49,048 bases of DNA, taken from contig JAITNK010000098.1 of NCBI GenBank assembly GCA_031290515.1, positions 1 to 49,048 on the forward strand, given 5' to 3'. Each line of letters opens with the position of its first letter. The first letter of the stretch is position 1. The position numbers and the translations under genes are program-made. The notes beneath the pieces were generated by a model that did not search any database, was not told the DNA's origin, and saw only the letters and a program-made list of their open reading frames with translations. Shown here piece by piece: positions 8,956 to 16,457 of the stretch. The stretch comes from Oscillospiraceae bacterium. GTDB taxonomy: Bacteria > Bacillota > Clostridia > Oscillospirales > Oscillospiraceae.

Positions 8956-11058
8956 ATGACTAACGTAGAACTGCTCACCTCGCGGTTCGCCGCGCTCCCG
9001 CGCATCGGGGAAACGGGACCGCAGTCCGGCTTCAACGGAAAGCGTATGACCGCGCTCGGGCGGCGTACGCGCCTGATTCACGCCGCGCTGTGCGTAATCG
9101 GGCTTGCGCCGTTTGCGCTGTGGCTGCTGTACCTGCTGAAGCTCGTCAGCTTTAAGGTGCCGCCGCAGCTCGTCGCGGTCGGCTTCGGGCTTGTCGTGCC
9201 GGGCGGCGGCTTCATTGCCTGCGGCGAGCCGGTGACGGTCGCAATCGGACTGTTTATCTGCTTCTGGCTCTGGAAAAAGCGCGGAATGATGATTCAGGAC
9301 TTCCTCGGCAGCTTTATGGGAATCGTCGGGTTCTGGGCGCTCGGCGCAGCCGGCGGACTGCTCGCGTTCGGGTGGTACTCGTGGGACTACGCCGCGTTCG
9401 GTCTCGCGCCTTTCGGCTACGCGCCGTGGGGGTACGCCGCCGCGGTCGGAACCGCGTTCGCGCTGTTCGTGCCGTACGAGCTTCAGGTGCGCCGTATGTA
9501 TAAGCAGATGTCGGCGGCGCGCGACGAGCGTCTGCCGCTGTTCGACGACGCGGTTGCGGAGCTTGACGCGGCGACCGGCGACCGCAGCATTGTCGGAGAA
9601 AAGGAATTCCGGCAAAACGGCGGCGGCGTCCGGAGCGGTGATACGGCGAAAGAACCCGGCGCGGACGAACTCGACGACGAGCAGCTGCTCGCCGCGCGGT
9701 ATCTGCTCGAGGCGACCGTGCGCGAGAAGGGCGACTTCGACGGCTTCGAGCATTTGTTCGGACTCGCCGACTACCGCTATCAGCTCTCGGTGTACGGTTA
9801 CGGGCTTATGCTGCTTCACGCGAAGTATCTGCCGAACTTCGAGGGGTACCTCAAAAAAGCGCACAGATTCCTTATCGAGTCGTACTCCGACCCGCGCACC
9901 TGCGGCTACTGGGCGAAGCAGGCGAAAGTCGGATACCTGTCGAACAACCCCGACCCGATTGTCAAAGCAAACGTAATGCTCTCCGGCTGGATGATGCCGG
10001 TCGTCGCCGGATACCGCGACCAGTACGGCGACGACGAGTACGAGAAAGAGGCTTCGATTCGCTTTCAGCCGTTCGCCGACAAACCGGAAGAGACGTACGA
10101 CTACAACTCCGCGGGCGTGTTCGGCGTACTGTACCGGCAGTATAAGAATCACGAATACCCGTATATGCTCATTCCGTGCGAACCGCACGTCGCGTTTCCC
10201 GCCTGCAACTCCGTCGCGCTGCTCGGTATGCTCGTCTACGACCGCGACCACGGCACGGACTACTGCGCCGGCTTCTGGGACGAACTGTACGACAACCTGC
10301 AGTCCGACTTCATCGAAATCGACGGTACTATGGCTCTGCGCCGGCAGTATCAGTACGGACTGCGGCACCTGCCCTCGTCGCAAATCGGCTATATGCCGCT
10401 CGCGGACGTTCAGAACTATATGCACTTTTCCGCGATATTCCCCGGTCTCGCGAGACGGTGCTACGCGCTCGTGCGGAAGACTCTGCTGTCAATCGACGCA
10501 GACGGCGCGGCGCAGGTGAACGGTCAGCCGTGGGATATGATGTTCAATATGTTCACGATGAAACCCGACCCCTCGACGCAGATCGCGATGCTCGAGCTTA
10601 CCGCCGCGGAGTACGGCGACCTTCCGGTGTACGACGCGCTGCGCGTCGCCGAGTCGCGGTTCCTCGCGAAGAGCAAAGACCCGACCTCGTTCAAGTTTAA
10701 GGACGTAAACTCGCTGACAGTCGCCTATATCGCGCTCGCGCGGCTGATTAAAAAAGGCTACTGGTCGGACGTTATTCTGCGCGGTATGCCGGAGACTTCC
10801 AAAACGGGTCCCGTGCTGACCGACTGTCCGTTCCCGGACGTTATTCCTGCGAAAGCGTCGAGTTCCGGAGACGACCTCGACCTCGTGCTCACGACCTCCG
10901 GCGAGCCGGTCGCCGCCGGAATCAGAATCGAACGCCTAAAGCCGGGCGCGCGGTACGCGTACGGCGCGGGCGCGTTCACTGCGGACGCGGACGGGGCGGC
11001 GACGCTTACCGTCGAAGTCGGACGGCGCACCGCGATACATATCGTTCCGGAGGCGTAA
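8956..11058 (+). CDS. 700-aa membrane protein: about 6 N-terminal TM helices plus a soluble domain of about 500 aa of unassigned family
   Basis: Long ORF with ordinary amino-acid composition, unlike the Arg-rich antisense ORF 8833-10425. Hydrophobic N-terminal 190 aa. I have only a weak unverified impression of an alpha/alpha-toroid-type domain. Confidence 0.75.
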   Translation: MTNVELLTSRFAALPRIGETGPQSGFNGKRMTALGRRTRLIHAALCVIGLAPFALWLLYLLKLVSFKVPPQLVAVGFGLVVPGGGFIACGEPVTVAIGLFICFWLWKKRGMMIQDFLGSFMGIVGFWALGAAGGLLAFGWYSWDYAAFGLAPFGYAPWGYAAAVGTAFALFVPYELQVRRMYKQMSAARDERLPLFDDAVAELDAATGDRSIVGEKEFRQNGGGVRSGDTAKEPGADELDDEQLLAARYLLEATVREKGDFDGFEHLFGLADYRYQLSVYGYGLMLLHAKYLPNFEGYLKKAHRFLIESYSDPRTCGYWAKQAKVGYLSNNPDPIVKANVMLSGWMMPVVAGYRDQYGDDEYEKEASIRFQPFADKPEETYDYNSAGVFGVLYRQYKNHEYPYMLIPCEPHVAFPACNSVALLGMLVYDRDHGTDYCAGFWDELYDNLQSDFIEIDGTMALRRQYQYGLRHLPSSQIGYMPLADVQNYMHFSAIFPGLARRCYALVRKTLLSIDADGAAQVNGQPWDMMFNMFTMKPDPSTQIAMLELTAAEYGDLPVYDALRVAESRFLAKSKDPTSFKFKDVNSLTVAYIALARLIKKGYWSDVILRGMPETSKTGPVLTDCPFPDVIPAKASSSGDDLDLVLTTSGEPVAAGIRIERLKPGARYAYGAGAFTADADGAATLTVEVGRRTAIHIVPEA

Positions 11059-11059
11059 G

Positions 11060-11209
11060 ATGCTGTGCTGTATAATCGCGGCGGCGTTTATCGTGCGCTA
11101 CGTCGCGCGGGCGGGTACGCTCAAACGCTATCTCGGCTTCGGAAGCGACCCGGAGCCGGAGCCGTTCGGCTGGGACGAATACTGCGAGCTTGACGAGTTC
11201 GACAGCTGA
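11060..11209 (+). CDS. Unannotated 49-aa peptide: one TM helix plus an acidic tail
   Basis: GGAGG 11049-11053 lies 6 nt before ATG 11060, one nt after the upstream TAA. Product MLCCIIAAAFIVRYVARAGTLKRYLGFGSDPEPEPFGWDEYCELDEFDS. Its TGA overlaps the next ATG (TGATG). Confidence 0.5.
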   Translation: MLCCIIAAAFIVRYVARAGTLKRYLGFGSDPEPEPFGWDEYCELDEFDS

Positions 11210-12192
11210 TGAAACCTCTCCGAATCGCGGTGGTCGCGGCGTTCTTCGCGTCCGTCGCCGTGACCGCGCTGACGTACGTTTTCCGCCAGGTTCACGCGCT
11301 GCACCCCGCGCACATTGCGCTCACGAACGCGACGTTTTTGCTGATTGCCGCGTATCTCGCAAAGAGCGCGAAGCTTGCGTCGCTCGCGGGACTGCGCGAG
11401 CTTCGCGCGAACTTCCCGCCGTATGACGGGACTGCGTACGGGCGCGAGACCGAGCTTCGCCCGAACAGCGTCGCGCAAACCGACTGTGAAATCACGCGCG
11501 GCGAGGTCGTCTCCGACGAGTCACCGCTTTCCGGACGGCGCGCGCGCGTTACAAAAACCGCCGGCGACAGGCTGTACCGCGGCAGTATAATCGTTTCCGG
11601 CGCGGCGGCGGCGCGCGGAACCCGGCAGCGGCGGTACGTCGCGGACGTTATGCCGGAGGGCGGCGCGGTTTTCAACGTCTGCGCAGCGTTTCTGGCGCGC
11701 AGCGGAATTTATGTGCGCGGCGAATACGTTCTGCGAAACATCGCGCCGTCGCGCAAGCTTACGGTGCGGTGCGCCGGCGCGAACCGCGCCGGACTTGCGA
11801 AAACGCGCGAAACGCTTGAGCGTATGGGCGTTACGCTCGCGCTCGAAGAAACCGGTCCGGAGTCCGAAATCGCGACCGGACGGCAGTACCGGCTCTGCGG
11901 ATTCGCGGAGTTTGATTCGTATCACGACGCCGTAATCACGCACGACAAGATTACGCATCTGCTCAAACTCGTCTACGCCGCAAGGGTTTACCGGCGCGCG
12001 CGTGCACCCGTACGGTTCATAACCGTCGCCGCTGCCGGCTTCGCGTTCGGCGCGCTGTGCGGATTTAAGCTGTTCGCGCTCGCCGCGCTGCCGTTCGCGG
12101 TCGCGGGAGCCGTGCAGCTCGCATTGCTGCGCCGGCTTGAAAAGAACCTCGCGCGGCGCGTCACTTTTGAGCTTGTCGCAAACACAAAGTGA
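11209..12192 (+). CDS. Miniaturised P1B-type-ATPase-derived membrane protein lacking all catalytic motifs
   Basis: DESPLSGRRARVTKTAGDRLYRGSIIVSG resembles DES-LTGES-PV-K-GD-V-G of the A-domain. ARSGIYVRGEYVLRNIAPSRKLTVRCAGA resembles GILIKG...V-FDKTGT. LERMGVTLALEETGPESEIA resembles L...GI..VMLTGDN..TA. DAVITHDKITHLLKLVYAARVYRR resembles DIVL..D.L..I..AI.LSR.T. Flanking TM helices are present. Confidence 0.6.
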   Translation: MKPLRIAVVAAFFASVAVTALTYVFRQVHALHPAHIALTNATFLLIAAYLAKSAKLASLAGLRELRANFPPYDGTAYGRETELRPNSVAQTDCEITRGEVVSDESPLSGRRARVTKTAGDRLYRGSIIVSGAAAARGTRQRRYVADVMPEGGAVFNVCAAFLARSGIYVRGEYVLRNIAPSRKLTVRCAGANRAGLAKTRETLERMGVTLALEETGPESEIATGRQYRLCGFAEFDSYHDAVITHDKITHLLKLVYAARVYRRARAPVRFITVAAAGFAFGALCGFKLFALAALPFAVAGAVQLALLRRLEKNLARRVTFELVANTK

Positions 12193-12495: not shown

Positions 12496-15411
12496 ATGTT
12501 CAAAAAATGGAATCTGAAAGCTAAGATATTCGTTTTTGTCACGGTCGTCGTCGTCGTGTCGCAAATCGCCATTACGTCGATGGTCGCCGCGCAGACGGTC
12601 TCGCTCACGAAGCGAGACGCATACGATCTTGCCGAGGTCACAGCCGAAAAATTTAAGAACGAAATCAAGTCGGAGATACAGGGCGCGCGGATTACAGCCG
12701 AGACTCTCTCGACCGTGATGGAGACGCTCAAGGCGAACGGCGTTAACGACCGCGAGCTGATGAACGAGGTTCTCAAAAACGCGCTCGCGTTCAAGGAGTA
12801 CATTACCGCGTTCTGCGTCGCCTACACCGTGGACGGACTCGACGGTATGGACTCGTTTTACGCCGGAGAGCCGGGTTCCATCTACAGTACAGACGGGCGT
12901 TACGCGCCCTACTGGAACAAGTTCGGCGACAGCATTGACGTGGAACCGCTTCAGGAAGCCTATCTCGACGAAGGCGTCACGCTCGACCAAGTTCCCGCGC
13001 TTCAGGAAGCCGGTCTCCCCTACGGTCAGACGCTTGACGAGCAGGACTGGTGGTACGTCCCCGAAGCAAACTGGGAAAACGGCGTCGTCGAATACATTAC
13101 GGAGCCTTACGCGTTTATGCTTCAGGGACAGAACGTCATTCTCGAAAGTCTGATTTTCTCTTTCGGCGACGCGGACGGCAATTTCCTCGGTCTCGTCTCG
13201 TCCGACATTGTGCTTGAGAACTTCCAGGCTATGGTAGAGCGCGTTAACCCGCAGAGTCAGGGCGGCTTTACCGAGATTTTCTCCAACGCCGGTTTCGTAA
13301 TCGCGCACCCGGACAGAGAGTACCTCGGTACGGACATCGAGGACGTGCTGAACGGCAGCGGCGACGCGTCCGCCGCCGCGAGCCTCGGCGACGTGAGAGC
13401 CGCGATTGCCGCCGGCGAATCCTATATTCACAGCGGAACCGACTATTACACCGTCTATATGCCGATCAGCTTCAGCGATGTCACCACGCCGTGGTCTGTC
13501 GCCGTGAGTATTCCTATGTCGGAAGTGCTCGGCAAAGCCGCGTCTATCAGAAACTACATTCTGACGATTTCGGCGATTGCCGCCGTCATAGTGATTGCGG
13601 TGCTGTACTTCATCTCGAGGAATATCACAGCCCCGATACTCGCGCTCGCGGACGCCGCGAAAGTCCTCGGCGACGGCAACTTCGAGGCGGAGATTCCGAG
13701 TACGGACGCGGGCGGCGAAATCGGCGTGCTTGCCCGCGCGGCAAAGTCTATGGCGGAGAAAATCAGCGACCTCGTCACAAAACTGCGTCACAACGCAGAA
13801 GAGCTTGAGGACAAGAACCGCAGTCTCGTCGCGCTCAACCTCGAGCTTGTAGAGGCTAAAGACCGCGCCGAAAGCTCAAACCGCGCAAAGAGCGACTTCC
13901 TGTCTAATATGTCGCACGAAATGCGCACGCCGCTCAACGCAATCATCGGTATGACCGCAATCGGCAAGCGCGCTCCGGATACCGAGAAGAAAGACTATTC
14001 GTTCGGCAAAATCGAGAACGCGTCCGCGCACCTGCTCGGCGTTATCAGCGATATTCTCGATATGTCCAAAATCTAGGCGAACAAGCTCGAACTCTCGCCG
14101 CTTGATTTCAGTCTCGACAAGGTCATTCAAAAGGTCTCCAACGTCATCGGATTCCGGGTCGAGGAGAAGAACGTCGCGTTCCGCGTCTCGGTCGATAAGG
14201 CTATCCCGCAGCGAATCGTCGGGGACGACCAGCGGCTCGCGCAGGTGCTTACGAATCTGCTGTCAAACGCCGTGAAATTCACTCCGGAGGACGGCGAGGT
14301 GTCGCTCGGCGTTACGCTGCTCGCGGAAAACGATTCGCTGTGCCGGCTGCAATTCTCCGTTACCGACAACGGTATCGGAATCAGCGCGGAACAGCAGACG
14401 CGTCTGTTCACGTCGTTCCAGCAGGCGGACAATTCCACCTCGCGGCGGTTCGGCGGCACCGGACTCGGTCTGTCAATCTCCAAGCGCATCGTCGAGCTTA
14501 TGGGCGGCGACATTCGCGTCGAGTCGGAACTCGGACACGGTTCCGTGTTCACCTTTACGATTAACGCGGAGCGCGGCAAAGCCGACCACCCGAGTCTGCT
14601 GAACCCCGGCGTGAACTGGAAAAACGTAAGCATACTCGCGGTGGACGACGACCCGGAGACGCTTGCGTACTTCCGCGAACTTGCGCTGACGCTCGGAATA
14701 AAGCTCGACGCGGCTTCCGATGCGGAAGAGGCGCGCGCGATACTCGACCGCGGCGTTCTGCACGACATTTATTTCCTCGACTATAAAATGCCGGGTATGA
14801 GCGGTCTCGAACTTTGCCGGACGATTAAGGACTCGCGCGCCGACAAAACCGCGGTCGCGATTATCTCCGCCGCCGACTGGAGCTCAATCTCGGAACACGC
14901 GAAAACCGCCGGCGTCGATCGCTTTGTCTCAAAACCGCTGCACTCGTCCGACATTGAGGACTGCATAAACGAATTCCTCGGCAACACCGCTCCGGCGGAG
15001 GAAACCGCTTCGGACGACGAGCCGGACAACTTCAAAGGACACACGATTCTGCTCGCGGAGGACGTTGAGATTAACCGCGAAATCGTCGTCGCGCTGCTTG
15101 AGCCGACGGAGGTTACTGTGGACTGCGCCGAAAACGGCGCGGAAGCCGTCCGCCTGTTTACGGAGAACCCGGAACGCTACGACCTGATTCTTATGGACGT
15201 GCAAATGCCGCAGATGGACGGACTTGAGGCGACGCGCGTCATACGCGCGCTTGACGTTCCGGAGGCGAAAACCGTCCCGATAGTCGCGCTTACGGCGAAC
15301 GTATTCCGCGACGATGTTGAAAAGTGCCGCGAAGCCGGTATGAACAGTCATCTCGGCAAGCCGCTGATTCTCGACGCGCTGCTCGCGGAGCTTCGCAAGT
15401 ACTGCGTGTAG
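12496..15411 (+). pseudogene. Hybrid sensor histidine kinase (TM, dCache, HAMP, HisKA, HATPase_c, 2 x REC) interrupted by one in-frame TAG at 14074-14076
   Basis: Track ORFs 12496-14076 and 14245-15411 are in the same frame. Reading through gives [19 protein letters not shown], where kinases have SKIEAGKLEL. H-box [14 protein letters not shown]-box LLSNAVKFT, G-boxes, and two receiver domains (ILAVDDD..., ILLAEDVEINREI...DLILMDVQMPQMDG). Confidence 0.75.
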
Positions 15412-15470: not shown

Positions 15471-16370
15471 TTACTCCCCAAATACCGGGTAACGCGGCAC
15501 ATCCGCAATCACGGAGAATATGCCGTCTTTGTGCATTTTCTTCCGGTCTTCCACAGACAGCCACTTTCCGGCGTGACGCGTGAAGCAGTAACATTCGAGC
15601 CGGTCGTCTTCTGAAATGCCGTAGAACATACCGACGGACTGCATTTTTGACGTATCCATAACGTCCATTCCCATAAGCCCGGGACCCGCCATTTCGCGCC
15701 AGGTGAAAACGTAAATGTTCTCCGCGACTTTGACGTAGCGCGCCGGTTCCGCGATTGTGAGGAACAGGCTGTCCGCGCCGCCGCCGATTTCGTTCAGGAA
15801 AAACTGCGGGTTGATGTAATGGTGCGTGAGCCACATTCCGCCGACGTCCCACGCGGCGACCTTGCCGACGAAATCGTCGGTAAAACTGTGCCGCTCCGCC
15901 GGCAGCTTGCCGTTCACCTCGAACGCGGCGAACGAGATACTGCCCGAAACGTCGCGCGGCGTGTAGTCGTAGTGACCGATTTGCGCGTCGTTTATCGTCA
16001 CGAGACCGGTGTTGAAGTCCACGCAGTACGCGGACATTTTCGGCGGCGGAGTTGATTTTCCTTTGCCGTTCGTGTGCAGGTGAAAGAAAAACACGATTCC
16101 GGGAGCCGCGTCATACGACTCGTAGTATTCCTCAATCCACACTCCGCGCTGGCTGCGGCGCAGATGATTCTCGTCGATAAACTCGTACTCGACGCCGGAA
16201 TTCCCGAACGTCGTGAATTTGAGCTTTTTCGCGTCGCGGAGCTTCGTCGAAAATTTGCGCGGGAAGTGCAATCCCCCGTCGTAGGGGTTGTTCGCCGGGT
16301 CGTTCACAATGTCGTAAATCTCGCGTCGTGTGAACTGGGTTGCGGGGAGTCGTCTTTCGTGCGGCGGCAT
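15471..16370 (-). CDS. Cytoplasmic protein of uncertain family (possibly MoaF/calycin-like two-domain protein)
   Basis: AAAGGAGGA lies 7 nt before ATG 16370 (MPPHERRL...); the start was trimmed from track start 16445. The family guess is weak. Confidence 0.6.
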   Translation of the reverse strand: MPPHERRLPATQFTRREIYDIVNDPANNPYDGGLHFPRKFSTKLRDAKKLKFTTFGNSGVEYEFIDENHLRRSQRGVWIEEYYESYDAAPGIVFFFHLHTNGKGKSTPPPKMSAYCVDFNTGLVTINDAQIGHYDYTPRDVSGSISFAAFEVNGKLPAERHSFTDDFVGKVAAWDVGGMWLTHHYINPQFFLNEIGGGADSLFLTIAEPARYVKVAENIYVFTWREMAGPGLMGMDVMDTSKMQSVGMFYGISEDDRLECYCFTRHAGKWLSVEDRKKMHKDGIFSVIADVPRYPVFGE

Positions 16371-16391
16371 ATATATTCCTCCTTTTATTTT

Positions 16392-16457
16392 CCGGGCGGC
16401 GAAGCCTCCGTCTCCCGGGTTCCGGCACAACGCCGGGCGTGACACGGCTTTGCCGGA
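16392..16457 (-). repeat. Copy 1 of the conserved GC-rich leader element (sense with the downstream gene)
   Basis: Sense strand reads CCGGCAAAGCCGTGTCACGCCCGGCGTTGTGCCGGAACCCGGGAGACGGAGGCTTCGCCGCCCGG and ends 7 nt before the RBS. Aligns with the copies at 34989-35064 and 41795-41864. Confidence 0.45.

Follow-up and report, generated by a model that had tools for sequence, protein, structure and literature searches.

A pseudo-enzyme of very probable CopA-type descent, retained with a small partner peptide in Oscillospiraceae

What becomes of an ion pump once catalysis has been given up, and why should selection keep the remnant? The question is posed by P0001, a 327-amino acid (aa) protein encoded by an open reading frame (ORF) in a 49,048-nucleotide stretch of DNA from an Oscillospiraceae bacterium (GenBank assembly GCA_031290515.1, contig JAITNK010000098.1, positions 1 to 49,048; the whole stretch is 'the window' below). 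P-type ATPases are well understood, and their nucleotide-binding (N) domain and the aspartate of the DKTGT motif are regarded as indispensable. An earlier note, made by a model from the letters of the window, had read the ORF as a P-type ATPase fold collinear with the heavy-metal (P1B) pumps, with each catalytic motif replaced and the N domain absent, and had taken it for a retained pseudo-enzyme or scaffold rather than a decaying fragment. On the analysis reported here the protein is very probably a pseudo-enzyme descended from a CopA-type (P1B-1) copper ATPase, and purifying selection, though relaxed, maintains it. As to its role, the reading we prefer, at a probability of roughly 0.4–0.5, is that it acts by binding, as the membrane partner of a small Cys-Cys peptide encoded just upstream and, in the window, as an accessory subunit of a membrane enzyme resembling Lis, a linalool dehydratase/isomerase-like protein.

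The collinear likeness to P1B ATPases is borne out by profile, profile-profile and fold comparisons, and the profile searches and structure prediction that the note had proposed both lead to P-type ATPases. The Pfam E1-E2_ATPase model matches residues 83-139 with E=2.5e-6, its 27.6 bits lying just below the gathering score of 28.1; Pfam Hydrolase has no match in the 327-aa protein. The best PDB sequence match found with phmmer is the A-domain of Archaeoglobus fulgidus CopA (2hc8, E=0.0025), from which the A-domain of the window protein differs by a root-mean-square deviation of 2.0 Å across 69 residues, at 32% identity. A phmmer search of 1.84 billion representatives matched 27 proteins, among them longer relatives and P0027, which itself, at 398 bits, clears the cut-off of 346 set for TIGR01525, the NCBIfam model of heavy-metal P-type ATPases. 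A profile of 12 sequences of the class to which the window protein belongs (the 'mini' class described below) aligns by hhalign to P0027 at 99.8% and E=1e-27 over 274 collinear columns, covering residues 41-325. The AlphaFold2 model, built with a 23-sequence alignment, has a mean predicted local distance difference test score (pLDDT) of 92.0 and a predicted template-modelling score (pTM) of 0.88, and with it Foldseek finds 61 PDB matches at E<=1e-3, of which the 50 best listed are all P-type ATPases: Legionella pneumophila CopA (4bbj) has E=9e-9, and the query-normalized template-modelling scores to A. fulgidus CopA (7r0g) and ATP7B (7xun) are 0.63 and 0.65. Taken together the profile, profile-profile and fold results exclude a chance likeness. 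By homology and fold the protein is thus a member of the P-type ATPase superfamily, having a collinear actuator (A) core, phosphorylation (P) core and flanking transmembrane (TM) helices.

What, then, is missing? The replacements that the note had listed all stand in the alignments. DESPLSGRR aligns to DESVLTGES, putting SGRR in place of TGES, a position at which the glycine (G109) is the sole residue that the family conserves. The note's pairing of RCAGA with DKTGT holds approximately as regards position, since KLTVR-C-AGA (residues 183-191) stands at tivFDKTGTLT and is about 7 residues shorter; the phospho-Asp is absent from the phosphorylation strand in every member of the mini or short classes. 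GVTLALEETGP aligns to GLSLVLLSGD with loss of the TGD (LALEETGP being residues 210-217). Where the note had the N domain absent, about 115 residues present in P0052, P0053 and CopA 3j09 are indeed missing, and the reported absence of GDGxNDxP corresponds to deletion of a segment of about 50 residues that includes the motif-III Lys as well as GDGxND. The hinge ITHDKITHLLK is retained, followed, as described, by the terminal helices M5 and M6. The losses go further than the note had seen: MB and M1, and M3 and M4 with their CPC site, are also deleted, the helix at residues 153-164 being the retained cytoplasmic end of M4 after M3 and most of M4 had gone; the alignment shows that YN and likewise MxxSS have been lost from M5 and M6; and the A-domain beta core stops after about two thirds of its length. 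Four TM helices are left, three seen as hydropathy peaks and the fourth an amphipathic TM2. In the AlphaFold2 model the retained fold consists of helices MA, M2, M5 and M6, what remains of the A-domain beta core, and a P-core reduced to its bare Rossmann fold (Table 1).

None of the features by which a functional P1B pump is recognized is present, neither the DKTGT Asp, nor TGES, nor an N domain with its SEHPL/HP region, nor TGD, Lys and GDGxNDxP, nor CPx with the M5/M6 ligands and a core of 6–8 TM helices. ATP binding is impossible because there is no N domain; with the DKTGT Asp, TGD, motif-III Lys, GDGxND and TGES all gone, aspartyl-phosphate can be neither formed nor hydrolysed; and no ion can be moved by a protein from which M1, M3 and the CPC-bearing M4 have been deleted and in which the YN and MxxSS ligands are lost. 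Common descent with the P1B-1 pumps (CopA of A. fulgidus and L. pneumophila, ATP7A/B) remains legible in MA, M2, M5, M6, the A core, the P core and the hinge, which have the same order, and in Foldseek query-normalized scores of 0.57–0.65, whereas those pumps are of about 700–800 aa and the window protein, at 327 aa, has no HMA domain. No curated family covers it, and its short relatives are without any Pfam match.

Table 1. Positions of the cassette genes, of the parts of the 327-aa protein and of two catalytic relatives (window coordinates unless a locus is named)
Feature	Position	Strand	Basis
Lis-type membrane-anchored linalool dehydratase/isomerase-like protein, 700 aa, Ldi domain 274-564	8956..11058	+	Pfam Ldi E=2e-53, PDB LDI matches
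49-aa single-pass peptide, MLCCIIAAAFIVRY...YLGF...FGWDEYCELD (C-terminal FGWDEYCELDEFDS)	11060..11209	+	sequence, homologues in related loci
Pseudo-P1B-ATPase ORF P0001, 327 aa, four-TM relic of a probable CopA-type pump	11209..12192	+	ORF, Pfam, hhalign, AlphaFold2
TM1, residues 2-24, aligns to helix MA; MB and M1 deleted after TM1	11212..11280	+	AlphaFold2 helix 2-24, hydropathy peak 6-24, alignment
H29-x2-H32-x2-H35 motif, predicted outer end of TM2	11293..11313	+	alignments
TM2 and stalk, residues 31-67, equivalent to M2 (TFLLIAAYLAKSAK against vfvLIGKYLERSAK)	11299..11409	+	hhalign, AlphaFold2 helix 31-67
A-domain beta core, residues 80-137, SGRR for TGES at 108-111 (11530-11541)	11446..11619	+	Pfam, 2hc8, alignment
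FNVCA, residues 155-159, relic of the M4 xCPCA segment	11671..11685	+	hhalign columns, AlphaFold2 helix 153-164
Degenerate P-domain, Rossmann relic, residues 165-249	11701..11955	+	alignment, hhalign, AlphaFold2 strands 167-169, 183-188, 209-214, 227-229, 241-243
Hinge DAVITHDKITHLLKLVYAARVYRR, residues 240-263, lineage-specific, common to catalytic relatives	11926..11997	+	alignments, hhalign
M5 and M6, residues 266-315, without YN and MxxSS metal ligands	12004..12153	+	hydropathy, AlphaFold2 helices 250-285 and 294-315, alignment
C-terminal lineage-specific tail RRLEKNLARRVTFE, residues 308-321 (RRLEK..RVTFE)	12130..12171	+	alignments
N-domain-less catalytic ATPase genes	L013 4433-6289 (P0027); L019 8001-9836 (P0040)		alignments

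By what steps was this state reached? The relatives form a graded series, from full-length pump through N-domain-less pump with its motifs, dead form with 8 TM helices and 4-TM mini form to forms without an A domain. The nearest N-domain-bearing relatives are P0052 and P0053, which have in common with the rest a lineage-specific hinge and a C-terminal ..ITF.K tail, the latter kept all the way to the smallest forms. Next comes a clade of P1B proteins that have no N domain (P0027 and at least 16 more clusters, P0036-P0051) of 588–638 aa and 47–87% mutual identity. Its 12 aligned members retain TGES, CPC, DKTGTLT, (S/T)GD, the Lys, GDGxND, YN and MSxSS; the clade has 8 TM helices, and Pfam detects an HMA domain in 5 of the 17. 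With the lineage of the window protein it shares the N-domain deletion junction (DKTGTLT..D.LREG), the hinge (ITxN+ITHLLK) and the ..ITF.K tail, together with, as in the window, the peptide (L013) and a Lis-like neighbour (L013 and L019), but its catalytic motifs, its 8 TM helices and a DsbD_2 partner have no counterpart in the window protein. In a dead class of 481–573 aa the 8 helices are kept while the motifs decay, DKTGT to DKTAL and on to DDTAK, DESAL and GASAR, TGES to TGD or TGA, and CPC to SPS or TPA. The mini class of about 310–340 aa includes the window protein, and smaller still are forms of 264–353 aa without an A domain and one of 230 aa. A neighbour-joining tree (46 sequences, 311 columns, 60 bootstraps), in which long-branch artefacts are possible, gives support of 100% to the whole lineage, 77% to the N-domain-less and dead forms together, 100% to the nesting of all dead forms inside the N-domain-less pumps and 100% to the mini, short and tiny forms as a group; in it the forms without an A domain are nested within the mini class, and they and the 230-aa form arose separately. 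The common N-domain deletion junction (…D.LREG…) fits this topology. Wherever a source of the family is named, it is a metagenome-assembled genome of uncultured Oscillospiraceae or Clostridiales; related genomes bear the names Hs463_bin* and Pc512_bin*.

A DsbD_2 (PF13386) membrane protein is encoded near catalytic members and near no dead ones (L013 6338-7225, L018 113-871, L019 9864-10517), either in place of the Lis-like gene or additional to it. At L013 there is in addition a Fer4_5 membrane polyferredoxin that recalls CcoG, and the ensemble has a loose likeness to ccoGHIS clusters, with the difference that the hosts here are anaerobic Oscillospiraceae and that the loci examined show no genes for a cbb3 oxidase. 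A 179-aa ORF that follows the L013 ATPase was considered as a stand-alone N domain and set aside, having neither similarity to the N domain of P0052 nor a Pfam match.

Is the remnant still of use to its hosts? The frame is intact as the note had claimed, with an ATG at 11209 and a stop ending at 12192, and its GC content by codon position (0.67/0.51/0.76) resembles that of the neighbouring genes, unlike the flat profile of a long antisense ORF. The homologues, about 25 clusters at 50% identity with lengths of 230–573 aa, have diverged to 30–45% identity with a consistent architecture and open frames, none being disrupted. The ratio of non-synonymous to synonymous substitution rates (dN/dS), proposed in the note as a check, is 0.27 in the sole pair with unsaturated dS (L003 against L006, dS 0.39), and the corresponding ratio of proportions (pN/pS) is 0.32–0.67 in the 14 most similar pairs, those listed; neither neutral evolution nor disruption of frames is seen. 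Between L001 and L007 the pseudo-ATPase is 61% identical, the peptide 77% and the Lis-like protein 86%, and since the pseudo-ATPase is thus the fastest-evolving member of the cassette, selection on it is real but relaxed. With catalytic residues lost, fold (pLDDT 92) and frame kept, and purifying selection acting across species, the protein is a pseudo-enzyme in the usual sense. Retention, as the note had supposed it, is supported by the intact frames of the homologues, by the dN/dS of 0.27 and by newly conserved features; 'scaffold' was right in kind, with the reservation that constraint is relaxed and that domain loss is continuing in the family.

Foremost among the new features is a histidine motif. 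HxxH, usually HxxHxxH, is conserved in all the mini, short and tiny dead forms aligned and is absent from the catalytic relatives, and was therefore gained when catalysis was lost. The longer dead forms with 8 TM helices have their own His-rich variants at the site, one of them with a single His. In one protein without an A domain, P0016 (L017 8001-9062), about seven tandem DDHASHGESAPV-like His-rich repeats stand in the TM1–TM2 loop at the site of HxxH.

The other is the peptide. The note had given the pseudo-ATPase an overlapping start, and there is one, TGATG at 11207-11211 with 1 nucleotide shared; its partner, however, is not the large upstream gene, the stop of which is at 11056-11058, but the peptide ORF, which begins 2 nucleotides past that stop (11058/11060) behind a GGAGG lying 6 nucleotides before its start, so that the peptide is translationally coupled on both sides. 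Members of the peptide family have 45–49 aa and the pattern M[LPI]CC, a hydrophobic helix, basic residues, YLGF and (Y/F)G(W/Y/F)xE(Y/H)(C/G/S)ELD, with M[LPI]CC invariant among all the sequences read. The peptide gene lies directly upstream of the pseudo-ATPase in all 15 distinct dead-form loci and upstream of the ATPase in two of the three catalytic ones, next to the N-domain-less P0027 (L013) and the full-length P0053 (L018); beside P0040 in L019 it was not found. A profile search brought in 44 clusters of 48–58 aa, all annotated as hypothetical and, where an organism is named, all from Oscillospiraceae. The family has been seen only adjoining this ATPase lineage, and a search outward from one peptide on a 96-kb contig again met a pseudo-ATPase downstream. 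Gain of HxxH and the invariance of this partner together favour a retained non-enzymatic role over decay.

There is a parallel in CcoI/FixI and CcoS/FixS, where too a P1B ATPase gene adjoins one for a single-pass peptide of about 50 aa with an acidic cytoplasmic tail. In the window lineage, by contrast, the peptide gene is upstream, and 12 peptides gave no match to Pfam FixS (PF03597) or to any NCBIfam model, ccoS among them, at E<=10, and the family has no other Pfam match either, HMMER filters limiting sensitivity for 48-aa queries; homology was accordingly rejected and the comparison kept as analogy. Rejected likewise were apparent fusions in P0013, P0015 and P0019 (L009 6968-7036, L010, L011): their 'TAG(K/R)NTVSL' N-terminal extensions are the +1 frame of the coding sequence for the peptide's YGWEEYCELD, and their start codons are therefore miscalled.

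What the pair serves may be approached from the gene upstream. To judge by its sequence, this neighbour belongs to the Ldi/Lis family, having an Ldi domain (profile positions 1-295 of 318 are matched), a Cys-x8-Cys motif and an N-terminal anchor of several TM helices (hydropathy peaks at residues 43-61, 72-90 and 120-138). Its residues 401-455 align to LDI 164-218, with C408 and C417 falling on positions 171 and 180; the motif, which belongs to the active-site region of LDI and reads CEPHVAFPAC at 10177-10206 of the window, is conserved as Cx8C in all 13 Lis-like proteins checked (CEPH[VL][AS]FPxC). In the Lis of Thauera four TM helices at the N terminus precede a cytosolic Ldi-like domain; the enzyme requires a reductant or reduced thiols, and it was inactive when expressed alone in Escherichia coli (PMC4791888). 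The Thauera linaloolentis enzyme and the window protein thus have in common the multi-TM anchor, the Ldi-like domain, a length of 644–700 aa and the Cys-x8-Cys; the Thauera gene lies by itself, with over 150 bp between it and its neighbours (PMC4791888), whereas that of the window is coupled to the peptide and the pseudo-ATPase. Of the 15 distinct dead-form loci, 11 have a Lis-like gene ahead of the peptide, and such a gene is present in two of the three catalytic loci (L013, L019). Recurrent among the flanking genes are those for old yellow enzyme (OYE)/Pyr_redox_2 and FAD_binding_2 reductases, short-chain dehydrogenases/reductases (SDRs), aldo-keto reductases, aldehyde oxidoreductases of xanthine-dehydrogenase type and LysR regulators, a company consistent with the conversion of allylic or terpenoid alcohols. 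No description of Lis-type enzymes in anaerobic Firmicutes was found in the literature.

From these several strands we put together the following picture. The pseudo-ATPase would work through binding and not catalysis, as membrane partner of the co-translated M[LPI]CC peptide, which may have been a companion of the ATPase lineage since the stage of working pumps. The helix of the peptide would pack onto the four-helix bundle, and the YLGF...YGWxEYCELD tail of the peptide would probably dock, on the cytoplasmic side, against the lineage-specific hinge (ITHxKITHLLK) and RRLEK..TFE tail of the pseudo-ATPase. In the window and most relatives the pair appears to be translationally coupled to the Lis-like enzyme gene, within clusters of ene-reductases, SDRs and aldehyde oxidoreductases, and it is there most likely a non-catalytic accessory or stabilizing subunit of the Lis-like enzyme, in the manner in which KdpB and KdpF accompany KdpA. 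In KdpFABC the P-type KdpB is assembled with an unrelated membrane protein, KdpA, to which the work proper falls, and with the small single-pass KdpF. The likeness to the window cassette would be one of architecture, with KdpB chains being among the best fold matches; KdpB, though, is active and energizes KdpA, whereas the window subunit is dead and its partner would be an (alpha/alpha)6 enzyme and not a channel.

Several observations weigh against this picture. The pair of peptide and pseudo-ATPase occurs without a Lis-like gene beside LysR in L003 and L006, beside rpoBC in L014 and alone in L020, and the link to Lis is therefore frequent, not obligatory. The Lis gene of Thauera has neither a peptide nor a pseudo-ATPase for a neighbour. 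The pseudo-ATPase evolves faster than both of its companions and keeps losing parts, as would fit a weakly constraining role. Finally, a purely structural role leaves the invariant Cys-Cys and the HxxH unexplained.

Do the cysteines and histidines then bind something? An alternative that addresses them directly, one that we think unlikely, has the dead pump neofunctionalized as a metal module, the Cys-Cys of the peptide and the HxxH(+H) of TM2 forming a site of Cu/Zn type on the outer face, where CopA releases Cu+, and the whole serving as a static sensor, buffer or guard for metal, for instance of a thiol-dependent Lis-like enzyme. The invariance of M[LPI]CC in every peptide read would fit, as would the distribution of the histidines, since every aligned form of the mini, short and tiny groups has HxxH and most longer dead forms have a His-rich variant of it, whereas the catalytic relatives lack the motif. 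The (DDHASHGESAPV)n repeats of P0016 occupy exactly the TM1–TM2 loop, the ancestors were pumps of Cu+ type with HMA CxxC, CPC, YN and MxxSS, and Lis has its requirement for reduced thiols. The topology, however, is a prediction based on homology and the positive-inside rule; among models of metal-binding families none fits the peptide; and the CC of the peptide is already there beside catalytic pumps that lack the His motif. An extended version, which we would likewise bet against, would make of the dead clade a re-purposed metal/thiol centre for the Lis-like enzyme, its Cys-Cys and HxxH sensing or sequestering thiophilic metals at the former Cu+ exit of M2, and would at the same time have the N-domain-less pumps energized without ATP, by acetyl phosphate or a trans-acting partner.

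Less probable again is that the gene has no function and is a remnant, not yet disrupted, that the operon carries along. It is after all the fastest-evolving gene of the cassette, every catalytic residue has gone, and further losses have been repeated in the family, those of the forms without an A domain and of the 230-aa form being separate events. Yet mere decay sits badly with some 25 clusters that at 30–45% identity all have open frames and a consistent architecture, with a dN/dS of 0.27 and pN/pS below 0.7 in the 14 most similar pairs, with a model of pLDDT 92, with invariant lineage motifs, retained or newly acquired (HxxH, ITHxKITH and the RRLEK..TF tail), and with preservation of the pair even where the Lis-like gene is wanting. 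That the protein is still an active transporter or phosphatase, by way of non-canonical residues or a nucleotide-binding partner acting in trans, is hardly credible: the N-domain-less relatives do keep every catalytic motif, the lineage may use an unusual phosphoryl donor and an acidic EE (213-214) lies near the former TGD site, but no mini or short member has a conserved Asp at the phosphorylation strand, the segment with Lys and GDGxND is physically deleted, the four TM helices are without intramembrane ligands, and no stand-alone N-domain gene was found nearby.

The lineage has several lessons to offer. A clade of pumps has shed its whole nucleotide-binding domain and yet conserves every other catalytic residue; such pumps, which would have to be phosphorylated without an ATP-binding domain, are a separate surprise. 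Nested within it, another clade has lost catalysis and half of its membrane helices and persists under selection with a dedicated partner of about 48 residues. This is a rare case in which the stepwise conversion of an ion pump to a non-enzyme can be traced, and the graded series amounts to a set of natural deletion mutants from which it can be read what portions of the fold stand structurally by themselves. In the literature searched, neither a bacterial P-type ATPase pseudo-enzyme nor a P1B ATPase without an N domain nor an association of Ldi with an ATPase was found. The peptide points to an unrecognized partner of P1B pumps; peptide and pseudo-ATPase together may explain why a membrane-anchored linalool isomerase was inactive when expressed alone, and the finding would aid the annotation of Lis-type enzymes in anaerobic Firmicutes.

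It remains to consider what lies downstream. That the ORF ends an operon, as the note had it, is plausible in the window, where a gap of about 300 nucleotides containing two sigma-70-like promoter sites follows 12192; against it, a terminator-like hairpin was sought in that gap and none was found, and in most relatives reductase or dehydrogenase genes come directly downstream. Beyond the gap, at 12496-15411 on the plus strand, a hybrid histidine kinase is encoded (dCache, HAMP, HisKA, HATPase_c and two receiver domains) with a single in-frame TAA at 14074-14076 (DMSKI*ANKLEL), after which the frame continues; either the gene has a nonsense mutation or the sequence is in error at this point. 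A link of the cassette to this kinase was considered and rejected, the kinase being conserved in none of the related loci and carrying the in-frame stop. Also near the cassette is a MoaF_C-domain protein (15471-16445, minus strand), and a faint MoaF match lies near that of L015 (10640-11371).

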